Positions 38,098-59,673 are shown, counted from the stretch's first letter. The stretch: DNA of 63,471 bases from Vicinamibacteria bacterium (GCA_016934575.1 JAFGSN010000107.1:1-63471); one strand, 5' to 3'. The notes: a model not told the origin generated them from the sequence alone. A program made the numbers and translations.

Positions 38098-39330
38098 TCA
38101 CGTCGCGAGACGTTCCAGTCGTTCGGCGGCCTCGATGCACATGCGGCCGTTGTGGTACGGACATTTCCACTCGGAGATTTTGGGCTGATTCGGATCCGGC
38201 GCGCCGTCACGCGACACGCGCCAGAACCATTCGCCGTGACGCCGGTCTATGATGCGATTCTCGATGAAACGCCATGAAGCCAGGGCGGCCTCGAAGAAGC
38301 GCGTCTCTTTCGACAGCTCGAAAGCATTGAGGAATCCGACCACCGCTTCCGCCTGCGGCCACCAGTGCTTGTCGCTGTCCTTGACGCCCCGCGAACTGGC
38401 CGCATAGAACAGACCGCCGTCCGCGTCCCGGCCTTCGCGCCAGACGGCATCGGCCATGGCCAGGGCCTGCTCGCGTACGCGATCGAGCAGCCGCGGATTG
38501 CCGATGACCTCGGCCGCTTCGCAGAGAAGCCAGCTTCCCTCGATGTCGTGACCAAACGAAATGTGGTCGGACTTCACGGTCCATGCTTCGTCGAAGAAGA
38601 GCCGGAATTGACGCCCTCGCGGATCAAGGATGTGTCGCATGAAGAGGTCGATCAGGGCCGTCAAGCGCGCGCGGAGCCGCGTGTCCGGCCAGACACGCAG
38701 AAGGTTCGTATAAGCTTCCATGACGTGCAGGTGCGTGTTCATGGATTTCTTCTCGTTGAGGTCGTCGTCGCTCAGGCGCAAATCCTCGGCCGGTTGCCAG
38801 TCGCGTTCAAAGGTCTCGAGATAACCGTCGTGATCCACGTCGCGGGCGTGCGCCTCGACGAGCTCGAAAACCTCCCGCGCCCGACAAAGCGCCTTCTCCG
38901 AGCCCGTGGCGCGGTGATACTCCGATAACGCGTATACAAGAAAGGCCTGTCCGTAGATCTTCTTCTTCATATCACGCGGTTGTCCGTCGGGATCGAGCAG
39001 CCAGAATGCGCCCCCGTGTTCGACGTCCCAGAAGCGCTCTTCAATATAATCGTATGCGCGTCGCGCGATTGCGAGGCAAGACTCGTCGCCGAGATGCAGG
39101 TAGAACGCCGCGAACGACCAGAGCAACCGCGCGTTCAGAATGAGACCCTTGGAGGCCGCTTGATCGACCTTCAGGTCGTTGCTCATTTGGCCGATGAAGC
39201 CGCCGCGCTCGGCGTCCGGACCATGCGTGCGCCAGAAAGGGATGATGTCGTTCCGCAGCTCTTCCATGAGCGCGCGGGAGAGTTTCCGCCGTGTCGTGCC
39301 GTTCTTCGTTTGAGACTCTTCTCCGCGCAT
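38098..39330 (-). CDS. Cellobiose 2-epimerase (AGE family)
   Basis: LNARLLWSF, KSMNTHLHVMEAYTNL, SFGHDIEGSWLL, WWPQAEAVVG, WKCPYHNGRMC. Start ATG 39330, 1 nt after the GH94 stop. Confidence 0.9.
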   Translation of the reverse strand: MRGEESQTKNGTTRRKLSRALMEELRNDIIPFWRTHGPDAERGGFIGQMSNDLKVDQAASKGLILNARLLWSFAAFYLHLGDESCLAIARRAYDYIEERFWDVEHGGAFWLLDPDGQPRDMKKKIYGQAFLVYALSEYHRATGSEKALCRAREVFELVEAHARDVDHDGYLETFERDWQPAEDLRLSDDDLNEKKSMNTHLHVMEAYTNLLRVWPDTRLRARLTALIDLFMRHILDPRGRQFRLFFDEAWTVKSDHISFGHDIEGSWLLCEAAEVIGNPRLLDRVREQALAMADAVWREGRDADGGLFYAASSRGVKDSDKHWWPQAEAVVGFLNAFELSKETRFFEAALASWRFIENRIIDRRHGEWFWRVSRDGAPDPNQPKISEWKCPYHNGRMCIEAAERLERLAT

Positions 39331-39331
39331 C

Positions 39332-57134: not shown

Positions 57135-57246
57135 GCGCAGTTTCACGGGATTCGTCCGGCGATAAACGGGGACGCGCGCGGCGAAGCGCGTCTTGATCGT
57201 GATAATCTTCACGGACGTTCGTCGCACGAACAGGAGGAGCGCGAAC

Positions 57247-59673
57247 ATGCGATTTGGACGGTTCGACGATGAGATGCGCGAATACGTGATCACGACGCCG
57301 ATGACGCCGTATCCGTGGATCAATTATCTCGGCTGCGAGAGATTTTTCTCGCTGATCTCGCATCTTGCGGGCGGATACTGTTTCCATCAGGATGCGCGCC
57401 TGCGCCGAATCACGCGCTATCGCTATAACAACGTCCCGATCGACGCCGGAGGGCGCTACTTCTACATCCGTGAAGGCGATGATTTCTGGAATCCGAGCTT
57501 CATGCCCGCCAAGCGCGCGCTGGATCGGTTCGAGTGCCGTCATGGTCTGGGATACACGAAGATCGTCGGGCGACGATCGGATCTCGAGGCCGAATCGCTT
57601 TTTCTGGTGCCACTGGGCGTCGACGCTGAGGTGCAGCGCCTGCGGTTGCGCAACCTCGCGCGCCGGCCGCGGGAGCTGCGCGTTTTTTCATTCGTCGAGT
57701 TCTGTCTGTGGAACGCCTATGACGACATGACGAATTTCCAGCGTAACTTTTCGACCGGCGAGGTCGAGGTCGAAGGCCGCGTCATTTATCACAAGACCGA
57801 GTATCGCGAGCGCCGAGATCACTATGCGTTCTACGGCGTGAACGCCGACCTGGAGGGTTTCGACACCGATCGGGAGTCGTTTTTGGGCATGTACAACGGT
57901 TTTCACGAGCCGGAGGCCGTCATTGAAGGCCGCGCGCGCAACTCGATCGCCAGCGGTTGGGCGCCGATCGGCTCGCACTGTGTCTCGTTGCGCCTGGAGC
58001 CGGGCGAGGAGCGGACGTTCGTCTTCGTCCTGGGCTACGTGGAGAATCCGCCGGACGGCAAATGGGAACGGCCGGGCGTGATCGAAAAAGAGCCGGCGCG
58101 CCGCGTCCTGGCGCGCTTCGCCGACTGCGCGCGGGTCGATCAGGCGATGGCGGATCTCCGCGCCTATTGGGACGAACTGCTCTCGGTCTATCGCGTCGAG
58201 TCGCCCGATGAACGTCTGGACCGCATGGTGAACGCCTGGAATCCCTATCAGTGCATGGTCACGTTCAATATCTCGCGCAGCGCCTCGTATTTCGAGAGCG
58301 GCATCGGGCGCGGCATGGGATTTCGCGACTCGAACCAGGATTTGCTCGGTTTCGTTCACCTCGTGCCCGCGCGTGCGAGGGAGAGAATTCTCGACATCGC
58401 GGCCACTCAATTCCCGGACGGAAGCGCCTATCACCAGTATCAGCCGCTCACGAAGCGCGGCAACAACGAGGTCGGCTCCGGTTTCAACGACGACCCGCTG
58501 TGGCTGATCCAGGGCGTTGCGGCCTACGTCAAGGAGACCGGCGACTTCGAGATCTTGAGGGCGGAGGTTCCGTTCGACAACGACCCGGCGAACGTCGCCA
58601 CGCTGTTCGAGCACCTCAAGCGCTCCTTCATGCATGTGCCGAGAAACCTCGGTCCGCACGGCCTGCCGCTCATCGGACGCGCCGACTGGAACGATTGCCT
58701 GAATCTCAACTGCTTTTCCGAGACTCCCGACGAGTCCTATCAGACGACCGCGAACCGCGAAGGCCGAACGGCCGAGTCGGTTTTCATCGCCGGATTGTTT
58801 CTGTTCGTGACGCCGGATTACGTCGCGTTGGCCGAGCGTCTGGGCTTTTCGGACGAAGCCCAGGCGGCTCGCGATCACGCGCAACGCATGCGCGCGGCGT
58901 TGATCACGCACGGCTGGGACGGCGAGTGGTTTTTGCGCGCCTACGACTTCTTCGGTCGCAAGGTCGGCAGTCGCGAGAACGACGAGGGGCAGATCTTCAT
59001 CGAGCCGCAGGGTTATTGCGTCATGGCCGGCGTGGGCGTCGATGATGGACGCGCACGAAAAGCGTTGGACTCGGTCAAGCGGCGTCTCGATACGCCCTGG
59101 GGAATCGTGGTGCACAATCCGGCGTACACCAAGTATCGCGTCGAGCTCGGCGAGATCTCCTCATATCCGCCGGGTTACAAGGAGAATGCCGGGGTGTTCT
59201 GCCACAACAATCCATGGATCATGATCGCGGAGACCATGATCGGACGCGGGGATCGCGCTTTCGAGTACTACAAGAAGATCACGCCGTCATATCTGGAAGA
59301 CATGAGCGAGATCCATCGCACCGAGCCTTATGCTTATTCGCAGATGATCGCAGGCAAGGACGCGGCGCGCAAGGGTGAGGCCAAGAACTCGTGGCTCACC
59401 GGAACCGCGGCCTGGAACTTCGTCGCCATCACGCAGTACATGCTCGGCGTTCGTCCGGAGCTGGATGGTTTGCGGGTGGAGCCGCGTATCGATCGGGAGA
59501 TCGCCGAATTCACCGTCACGCGCAAGTGTCGTGGCGCCGTTTATCGCATACGCGTGAAGAACGGCGGCGGCGCCGGTCCGGCACGCCTTCAGGTGAACGG
59601 CCGTCCGATATCGGGCACTCTGGTCCCGTACGCATCCCCAGGAGAGACGATCGAGATCGATTGCGAGGCTTGA
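57247..59673 (+). CDS. Cellobiose phosphorylase (GH94)
   Basis: [97 protein letters not shown] after AGGAGG. Confidence 0.94.

Follow-up and report, generated by a model that had tools for sequence, protein, structure and literature searches.

A compact gene cluster in a Vicinamibacteria genome with candidate enzymes for the phosphorolysis of glucomannan and cellulose oligosaccharides

A contig of 63,471 nucleotides from a Vicinamibacteria bacterium (GCA_016934575.1, JAFGSN010000107.1), analysed here at its full length and called the window, carries between positions 38098 and 59673 a group of genes with a predicted role in the use of β-1,4-linked gluco- and manno-oligosaccharides. The window is one entire contig of a 3.98-Mb genome that is 98.4% complete and 4.4% contaminated. 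Open reading frame (ORF) listing with Pfam, NCBIfam and PDB searches identified three genes of family GH94 (GH94-A, GH94-B and GH94-C), two of GH130, an epimerase, a ROK kinase, a GH113 gene, transporters of the MFS, SSF and GPH families and a LacI-family regulator (Table 1), the very set that an earlier note on this DNA had listed for about 22 kb. An ankyrin-repeat gene and a methyltransferase gene, absent from that inventory, also lie inside the span, and none of the 14 frames checked across the locus contains an internal stop. The sugar genes do not form a single operon and are split over several transcription units on both strands: a minus-strand run GH130_2-MFS-ROK-GH94-A-epimerase, with 1-nt gaps at MFS/ROK and GH94-A/epimerase, is followed on the plus strand by ankyrin-GH113, methyltransferase, MGP-LacI (MGP being the second GH130, a predicted 4-O-β-mannosyl-glucose phosphorylase), SSF and GPH, and GH94-B and GH94-C are divergent. 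The acidobacterial host proposed earlier agrees with the flanking zinc-ribbon gene, since the two named homologues among its best 120 matches are from Vicinamibacteria (52–57% identity). The ORFs scanned in the span include no GH1, GH2, GH3 or GH5 gene and no TonB receptor (SusC/SusD pair), so this is not a classical Bacteroidota polysaccharide utilisation locus (PUL), and the Pfam scan found no ABC importer, GH3 glucosidase, esterase or alpha-galactosidase there.

Table 1. Features of the locus and its right flank, in window coordinates (aa, amino acids; PF and TIGR numbers are Pfam and NCBIfam models).
Feature	Position	Strand	Basis or remark
Predicted cellobiose 2-epimerase, 410 aa	38098..39330	-	1 nt past GH94-A stop
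GH94-A, predicted cellodextrin-phosphorylase type (BpGH94/RaCDP/CdpB-C group), 798 aa	39332..41728	-	PDB and residue comparison
ROK-family hexokinase, likely for free hexose	41891..42991	-	PF00480; PDB 3MCP 'glucokinase' 441 bits, next 44
MFS transporter, GluP/FucP-like, likely monosaccharide, 380 aa from GTG	42993..44135	-	PF07690; TIGR01272 92 bits, below cut-off
Predicted GH130_2-type β-1,4-mannooligosaccharide phosphorylase, 330 aa	44222..45214	-	TM1225/1VKD 507 bits
Ankyrin-repeat protein	45385..46188	+	PF00023/PF12796; overlaps GH113 start by 4 nt
Predicted GH113 β-mannanase	46185..47294	+	PF22612 200 bits; PDB 4CD6/3CIV endo-β-1,4-mannanase 123 bits
SAM methyltransferase, probably bystander	47558..48427	+	PF13489
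Predicted GH130_1 4-O-β-mannosyl-glucose phosphorylase (MGP), 416 aa	48708..49958	+	3WAS 567, 5AY9 535 bits
LacI-family regulator	49946..50956	+	PF00356 and PF13377; overlaps MGP end
Sodium:solute symporter (SSF)	51100..52926	+	PF00474
GPH-family glycoside:cation symporter, likely oligosaccharide importer	53125..54498	+	TIGR00792 411 bits, cut-off 231
GH94-B, CdpA/CepB-like clade without close solved member, 803 aa	54593..57004	-	D494, H645, W170, Phe632 at +1
LacI-family-like palindrome TGAAAGCGTTTTCA	57121..57134		halfway between divergent GH94-B and GH94-C starts
GH94-C, predicted cellobiose phosphorylase, 808 aa	57247..59673	+	D483, Y640, H653, long CBP loop
FkbO/Rid-like gene, directly 3' of GH94-C, start uncertain	59670..60833	+	PF01042; TIGR04444 weak

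By its residues and its score of 1305 bits against 3QDE, the cellobiose phosphorylase (CBP) of C. thermocellum, GH94-C is a predicted CBP. It has a 20-residue loop insertion that is missing from GH94-A and GH94-B; in CBP a long loop that follows the catalytic Asp blocks longer substrates (PMC6720390). GH94-A is of the cellodextrin phosphorylase (CDP) type seen in Blautia and R. albus and is predicted to act on chains with a degree of polymerisation (DP) of at least three and not on cellobiose. It scores 751 bits with 8BOU versus 565 with CBP and 548 with N,N'-diacetylchitobiose phosphorylase (ChBP), keeps the catalytic Asp and phosphate ligands (D489 and H640), has a short catalytic loop and carries a loop-2 motif, NIQY, that resembles CdpB/C. 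Despite its PDB label, 8BOU is BpGH94MLG, a CDP for mixed-linkage glucan with no activity on cellobiose (PMC10318527). Because this assayed enzyme is a CDP, the name N,N'-diacetylchitobiose phosphorylase, which labels 8BOU and was given automatically to many GH94-A homologues, is likely to be a widespread misannotation. For GH94-A itself the name was rejected, as Phe627 occupies the +1 site where ChBP needs Val (its determinant is Val631, and CBP and BpGH94 have Tyr653 at that position; PMC10318527).

Phe is found in both GH94-A and GH94-B at the column aligning with Tyr653 of BpGH94 and CBP. We take Tyr648 of R. albus CBP (RaCBP) to occupy this same +1 column. The Y648F mutant of RaCBP synthesises Glc-Man faster, and R. 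albus CDP (RaCDP) takes mannobiose as acceptor, with approximate table values of ~65 mM (Km) and ~41 per s (kcat), those of cellobiose being 13 mM and 47 per s (PMC8140972, PMC7896129). Phe at +1, together with the pairing of GH94-A orthologues and GH130_2 in Bacteroidota loci described below, suggests that GH94-A likely handles Glc-Man ends.

The top PDB match of GH94-B reaches only 529 bits, and the protein is 63–67% identical to Anaerolineae and other proteins and 84% to one sister sequence (P0002). A further protein, P0242, is 77% identical to the zinc-ribbon protein of the window, and a sister species (P0002/P0242) may have retained the right end. CDPs of the CdpA/CepB type are marked by a loop L2 Trp, a Thr after the catalytic Asp, a His phosphate ligand and a short loop (PMC6720390). 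GH94-B shares the DWV loop-2 motif (W170) with R. cellulolyticum CdpA and has H645 and the short catalytic loop; its clade has the consensus Asp-Thr, and this protein has Asp-Pro-Thr. Its catalytic loop reads DPTN instead of DTVN/DCLN, with Gly at the position of the CBP Glu. Phe at +1 occurs in GH94-B and in only 2 of its 119 top homologues. We would tentatively see in it a cello-oligomer enzyme for longer chains alongside CBP. The AlphaFold model of GH94-B (22-row alignment) had a mean pLDDT of 57 with active-site segments below 50 and was not used, and the ESM Atlas returned only generic GH94 clusters.

The GH130_2 protein has TM1225, a mannooligosaccharide phosphorylase, as its best match, against 376 bits for RaMP2 and 377 bits for UhgbMP, in a subgroup that includes both mannoside and Man-GlcNAc enzymes. 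Its R62, Y106, D107, R153, R171, H232 and D305 fit the phosphorylase/β-1,4 signature (PMC7660257, Table 2), and it has no signal peptide. In MGP, which is closest to the MGPs of B. fragilis and R. albus (BfMGP/RaMP1; the next GH130 scores 100 bits), the same signature is complete (R90, Y132, D133, R194, R212, H276 and D347; PMC7660257, Table 2). The epimerase matches cellobiose 2-epimerases in the PDB at 445 bits versus at most 76 for AGE and is accordingly predicted to be a cellobiose 2-epimerase, not an AGE. It contains R68, H200, H261 and H393, which we take to be the catalytic residues of such enzymes, and it falls outside the NCBIfam EpiA equivalog (368 against a cut-off of 800). GH113 has both catalytic Glu residues (E183, E287) and a lipoprotein-type signal (LSVG-C30), and is likely to be extracytoplasmic. 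The solved relatives and residues of these enzymes are coherent around β-1,4 gluco- and manno-oligosaccharides, in keeping with the earlier expectation that their specificities are related to one another.

These genes, their residues and their context are what we observe, and the scheme built on them, including every activity, transporter substrate and co-regulation, is a prediction. GH113, together with GH26, GH5 and GH9 enzymes encoded elsewhere, would cleave the polymer outside the cytoplasm, and the GPH and SSF symporters would import the oligomers. On chains of three or more units GH130_2 would release terminal mannose as Man-1-P and GH94-A/GH94-B would release terminal glucose as Glc-1-P, with GH94-A (Phe at +1) likely taking Glc-Man ends and GH94-B perhaps acting on longer cellodextrins with CBP. 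The epimerase would then convert mannobiose to Man-Glc for MGP and Glc-Man to cellobiose for CBP, reactions that have been shown for homologues; an epimerase/GH130 funnel at the disaccharide stage is described for S. copri EpiA and GH130 (PMC12704710). The ROK kinase may phosphorylate the sole free hexose, and PGM/PMM and ManA, whose genes were found elsewhere in the genome, would feed glycolysis. The ATP cost of an n-mer would thereby be one instead of n. On paper, the five predicted phosphorylases together with the epimerase can deal with each of the four β-1,4 linkages found in undecorated glucomannan. The earlier claim that every glucomannan linkage can be cleaved by phosphorolysis stands to this extent, with the Glc-Man step as a prediction and with undecorated oligomers as its range.

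Neighbourhoods of the two less familiar GH94 types in other genomes point in different directions. GH94-A orthologues are present in 10 of 301 genomes of Bacteroidota (the phylum of a Rikenellaceae metagenome-assembled genome, MAG); a GPH symporter lies within 10 kb in 10/10 of these loci and GH130_2 in 5/10, directly adjoining in four. The GH94-B clade was followed in 80 GTDB loci (Chloroflexota, Spirochaetota, Fibrobacterota, Bacillota and others) and 80 metagenome loci, the latter not including the contig of P0002. Many of these loci are short and the counts are lower bounds: CBP is on the retrieved DNA in at least 41, LacI in at least 29, GH1 in at least 15, GH3 in at least 8 and GH130_2 in at least 4 of the GTDB loci, and CBP in at least 39 and GH130_2 in at least 8 of the metagenome loci. 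Three family members, G014, G807 and G815, carry a fourth stand-alone GH94 type, 38–43% identical to A, B and C, directly 3' of a GPH symporter gene (L122:8602-10992, with Phe at +1; L278:8714-11152; L279:8758-11166), and a similar match occurs in G1026; it is sister to clade B in trees, and no characterised relative was identified.

In the region between the divergent GH94-B and GH94-C genes, the pattern TGAAANCGNTTTCA, which we take to be a LacI-family operator pattern, has its one exact match in the whole 3.98-Mb genome (57121-57134), where 0.22 would be expected, the pattern having been picked after the site was seen. Allowing up to two mismatches gave no second LacI-like site in the locus, other motifs being possible, no operator common to all transcription units was found there, and promoter and terminator counts in the locus are at chance level. 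By eye, similar AT-rich words, GAATATCTTCTG (45253-45265) and GAATATTTTCAG (48644-48657), stand upstream of GH130_2 and MGP and are possibly a second operator. In another sugar locus of the genome a LacI-like site with one mismatch lies between divergent GH31 and GPH genes (G000:C165:3225).

The respiratory genes of the host are unusual for its order. A family search found no COX1-family gene in this genome, and COX1 is present in 40/40 family and order relatives and in 8/8 further family members (48/48), so that, among 49 genomes of the order that were tested, it alone is without a heme-copper oxidase gene; tblastn with the ORFs from the ACIII/cox operon of G010, a relative, likewise gave no match in the genome. 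Searches by tblastn (E. coli queries) or Pfam found cytochrome bd, PFOR (C171), Rnf (C161), Pta/AckA (C188) and an FdhF-like protein, as well as complex I, SDH/Frd, genes of the tricarboxylic acid (TCA) cycle, ManA and PGM/PMM. NarG, NrfA, PflB, FeFe or NiFe hydrogenase and DsrA were not found in the genome, and sulfate reduction as a lifestyle was set aside for lack of a DsrA match. Directly upstream of the complex I genes (L262, G000:C88:27313-34648) lies a hydrogenase-4-like membrane complex, the large subunit of which is without the CxxC motif and which we take to be Ehr-like. Since heme-copper oxidases are missing and cytochrome bd, PFOR, Rnf and Pta/AckA are present, a low-oxygen, probably fermentative life is supported independently of the phosphorylases, and there has possibly been a secondary aerobic-to-low-oxygen shift in this lineage. 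Vicinamibacteria are counted among the soil-preferring classes, which are richer in genes for O2 respiration (PMC11245096). Another acidobacterial genome with a related locus (G389, see below) is also without COX1, and the four other genomes of the phylum with a single stand-alone GH94 that were tested all have it; two genomes allow no statistical test.

Taking this together, we consider it fairly probable, with real reservations, that the locus imports undecorated glucomannan and cellulose oligosaccharides and degrades them stepwise by phosphorolysis, in a lineage without heme-copper oxidases that is likely fermentative or microaerobic. A number of observations weigh against this reading. The coverage of linkages is confined to undecorated oligomers because the locus is without alpha-galactosidase or esterase, and 14 GH3 genes lie outside the locus. 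GH94-A and GH94-B are without a close characterised relative; BpGH94, the nearest solved relative of GH94-A, serves mixed-linkage glucan, and the +1 column within clade A holds Met, not Phe, in 46 of 120 homologues. In the remaining five of the ten Bacteroidota loci with GH94-A, no GH130 gene stands within 10 kb and all five have GH3, with GH2/GH5 in some, so clade A contexts read as divided between mannan and glucan. Clade B points to a CBP partner on cello- rather than manno-oligomers, because GH130_2 is rare beside it (4/80 and 8/80) and GH1/GH3 glucosidases occur in other loci. With a single LacI-like site in the locus, joint control of all five phosphorylase genes is not supported. The presence of cytochrome bd, complex I, SDH/Frd and TCA genes, with no hydrogenase found, leaves strict fermentation unsupported. 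Finally, all ten CBP-bearing family members tested also carry a COX1-family gene, nine of them with MGP and epimerase. Because oxidase-bearing relatives carry most of them, the phosphorylase genes by themselves are no marker of fermentation. The energy-limited fermentative lifestyle proposed in the earlier note is thus backed, as regards low oxygen, by the gene set and the missing COX1 but not by the phosphorylases from which it had been argued. Its view that such a lifestyle is not well described for the phylum is weakened, as fermentative capacity and a CBP have already been published for other Acidobacteriota (PMC8528874; bioRxiv 2021.04.09.439258).

The hydrolases of the genome comprise 14 GH3, 5 GH2, 3 GH5, 1 GH26 and 1 GH9. 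At least three GH3 proteins (C102, C36, C246) have, by eye, no evident signal peptide; one GH5 is near a bifunctional mannanase/endoglucanase and another is near CelC. No Mannosidase_ig domain was found genome-wide, including in the five GH2 proteins (the search detected it in 2 of 14 controls), and tblastn with one query gave no GH1 match in the genome. Short-oligomer mannoside bonds therefore seem to depend on the GH130s, while glucoside bonds have hydrolytic alternatives, and the earlier statement that no β-glucosidase or β-mannosidase is present is right for the locus but, as regards β-glucosidases, not for the genome.

The alternative that fares best separates the locus into two neighbouring systems, one for mannan (GH113, GH130_2, epimerase and MGP) and one for cellulose or mixed-linkage β-glucan (CBP, GH94-A and GH94-B), brought together as sugar genes accumulated in an island, with Glc-Man ends handled by GH3 or at the disaccharide stage. 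It would fit BpGH94 being a mixed-linkage-glucan CDP, the company of CBP, GH1 (15/80) and GH3 (8/80) kept by clade B, the LacI-like site lying between B and C only, the unrelated ankyrin and methyltransferase genes that break the span, and the 27–50 kb between MGP and CBP in relatives. However, GH94-A is encoded in one run on the same strand as GH130_2, ROK and the epimerase, with a gap of 1 nt before the epimerase gene, its pairing with GH130_2 is seen again in Bacteroidota, and it has Phe at +1. We hold this alternative to be possible and, on balance, doubtful. Improbable in our view is that GH94-B, and perhaps GH94-A, uses a different, undescribed acceptor (e.g. a β-1,3, β-1,6 or xylosylated glucoside) and acts on another glycan, for instance xyloglucan or an exopolysaccharide of microbial origin: the solved relatives of GH94-B reach no more than 529 bits and the protein shows DPTN, Phe at +1 and Gly for the CBP Glu, GH94 has repeatedly been a source of new specificities (PMC8950772, PMC8741936) and a GH31 gene stands in the G389 locus, yet GH94-B has the CdpA loop-2 Trp motif, a clade consensus of Asp-Thr with the His phosphate ligand, and CBP as neighbour in about half of its clade's loci. 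It is very unlikely that the left operon (GH130_2, MFS, ROK, GH94-A, epimerase) serves N-glycan cores or chito-oligomers (Man-GlcNAc-GlcNAc), as the automatic ChBP names of GH94-A homologues, the GH130 C2 node that includes Man-GlcNAc and mannoside enzymes alike and a weak NagP match of the MFS protein might hint, since GH94-A has Phe and not the Val required of ChBP (PMC10318527), the ChBP-like protein of G301 that does have Val is only 39% identical and on a separate branch, the epimerase matches cellobiose 2-epimerases and the top GH130 match is TM1225.

The enzyme set of the locus is rare in the phylum sample. GH94 family matches occur in 94 of 400 phylum genomes, most of them in frames of ~2,800 aa such as cyclic glucan synthases typically have; stand-alone GH94s at E<1e-140 are found in 8/400 (one ChBP-like) and an MGP orthologue in 6/400. 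None of the 400 other than the present genome has three stand-alone GH94s at E<=1e-60, with up to four candidates scored per genome, so that the grouping exceeds what chance would give, and only G389 has two, along with SSF, GPH, GH26, GH5, MGP and epimerase. Its locus (L124, G389:C21:311-17608), in a 3.0-Mb genome, is arranged as SSF-GH94A-CBP-GH31 facing GH5-GPH-GH26-MGP-epimerase, and its GH94-A copy has its own history. The three-GH94 set is thus unmatched in the sample, and a similar mannan locus with two GH94s exists in one other genome of the phylum. Of the class members sampled, 10 of 40 from the window's family and 0/310 others have CBP; the ten all have GH130, and nine have MGP orthologues (67–71%) and epimerases (47–52%). 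In six family genomes MGP, an Rid/FkbO-like gene and CBP lie within 27–50 kb on one contig, in four of them with an FG-GAP gene too, and GH130_2 orthologues (76–78%) are present elsewhere in two family genomes. Orthologues of GH94-A or GH94-B are absent from all 58 family genomes (best matches 41% and 43%), and no such locus stands at the zinc-ribbon/PgeF site in ten relatives, several of whose contigs are short. What sets this genome apart is GH94-A, GH94-B and the co-location of the genes.

Trees of the GH94 genes, the only genes so treated (FastTree, 172 rows; IQ-TREE quick mode, LG+G4, 45 chosen rows), group GH94-C with relatives from the family and with G197 (SH-aLRT 100), GH94-A with Kryptonia, KSB1, Melioribacteraceae and Bacteroidales proteins, apart from the G389 copy (SH-aLRT 99), and GH94-B with P0002 as sister to Spirochaetota sequences (SH-aLRT 99). 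A tandem duplication of the three was ruled out by identities of 34–37% and by their three separate clades, and a recent transfer by the finding that in GC3 and codon usage the sugar genes stay within 1.3 standard deviations of the genome mean; because codon use is host-like, any transfers are old. The SSF protein is 45–55% identical to SSFs of other-class Acidobacteriota (G389, G359, G135, G352, G368, G197), where its homologues adjoin CBP or epimerase-MGP genes, and ~25% identical to family SSFs. While GH94-A, GH94-B, ROK and SSF look foreign, CBP and MGP, and probably GH130_2 as well, appear native to the family. Assembly from several donors, as first suggested, agrees with the several gene histories but not with the family-native look of CBP, MGP and probably GH130_2, and we propose that the cluster arose by the addition of GH94-A, GH94-B, ROK and SSF to an MGP...CBP framework inherited within the family. 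A bolder version, which we offer tentatively and think rather unlikely as a whole, would make GH94-A a phosphorylase specialised in glucomanno-oligosaccharides, taking Glc off Glc-β1,4-Man ends and alternating with GH130_2 in a conserved transporter-GH130_2-GH94 module, and GH94-B a member of a large unassayed clade, both gained by a Vicinamibacteria lineage that lost heme-copper oxidases, giving it a fully phosphorolytic glucomannan route as one element in the secondary adaptation of a largely aerobic group to life in low-oxygen sediment. The examined part of the 2022 review table lists no Glc-Man-specific GH94.

Some further features belong to the setting of the locus. The ROK match 3MCP is presumably a Parabacteroides protein, and the start codon of the MFS gene was picked by its ribosome-binding site. 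In the six family genomes, homologues of the FkbO/Rid-like gene (47–51%) lie between MGP and CBP, frequently accompanied by FG-GAP/ASPIC genes of the kind seen at 34374-37829. Of all genes in the region, the methyltransferase has the worst codon fit (z=-2.0), and it is possibly a later insertion. Window DNA was found in one listed run only, X1, a sediment metagenome that may be the source. Contigs of X1 span 45422-52449, 55025-57808 and 58983-60900 at 21–28x, and no long pieces covered the rest with 56% of the run read; no RNA run is listed with this DNA, and two RNA runs of the X1 study gave short pieces only. The 7-kb X1 contig shows 12 differences, eight of them in the ankyrin gene, which is thus variable between strains or assemblies. 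By eye, a stretch resembling an RNase HI gene (61630-62070), flanked by the zinc-ribbon and PgeF genes, is without an ORF of at least 150 aa and is possibly broken.

The locus offers a compact enzyme set for asking whether glucomannan can be used wholly by phosphorolysis. GH94-A and GH94-B are concrete members of widespread clades for which no close assayed relative was found, and new phosphorylase specificities would be useful in oligosaccharide synthesis. The genome may also document an aerobic-to-low-oxygen shift within Vicinamibacteria. We found no published report of such a locus in Acidobacteriota or Vicinamibacteria, in a search that left subscription journals and bioRxiv supplements aside.

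A close parallel in enzyme content is R. albus 7, which is listed with a mannooligosaccharide phosphorylase, epimerase, MGP, CBP and CDP (RaMP2 Rumal_0099, RaMP1 Rumal_0852, CE, RaCBP Rumal_0187, RaCDP Rumal_2403; PMC8950772, Table 1; pathway via PMC6385246). There, however, the locus tags are scattered and one CDP is listed, while here the genes lie within 22 kb, in another phylum, with a second CDP-like clade and secondary transporters. Roseburia intestinalis MULL/MULS is described with the same GH130_2, epimerase, GH130_1 and GH113, with mannose leaving as Man-1-P, but there GH3 takes terminal Glc, import is by an ABC system, esterases and GH36 are present and the exo-acting GH113 is cytoplasmic (PMC6385246); in our locus the GH94s likely stand in place of GH3, GH113 has a lipoprotein signal and debranching enzymes are missing. 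Bacteroidota mannan PULs (the B. fragilis MGP-epimerase pair; Segatella copri PUL7, PMC12704710; CBMXX, bioRxiv 2026.02.11.704390) share the epimerase and GH130_1 at the disaccharide stage. GH94 is reported from 42% of CBMXX mannan PULs with a speculative role (bioRxiv 2026.02.11.704390), and the S. copri GH94 is induced by glucomannan, with cleavage of cellobiose and Glc-Man speculated (PMC12704710). In contrast to these PULs, no SusC/D pair is present here, and the three GH94s and GH130_2 suggest that oligomers beyond disaccharides are phosphorolysed in the cell.

On the cellulose side, Ruminiclostridium cellulolyticum has CbpA with CdpA/CdpB/CdpC, that is one CBP with CDPs of the CdpA/CepB and RaCDP types, among which work is divided by chain length (PMC6720390); unlike here, the genes are scattered and serve cellulose only, and we liken GH94-B to CdpA by motifs, not by tree. 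Blautia producta BpGH94MLG (8BOU, PMC10318527) is the closest solved relative of GH94-A and a CDP active at DP of at least three without cellobiose activity, but has Tyr653 at +1 and acts on mixed-linkage glucan, in contrast to the Phe and the mannan-gene setting of GH94-A. Within the phylum, the Acidobacteriota MAG Ca. Sulfomarinibacter kjeldsenii has a CBP that was taken to indicate ATP-saving anaerobic cellulose use; it is a single CBP, and the consulted part of that report mentions no mannan route or CDPs (PMC8528874). The parts of the pathway are known and stand here in a new combination, of interest for its two unassayed GH94 clades and for the apparent loss of heme-copper oxidases by the host.

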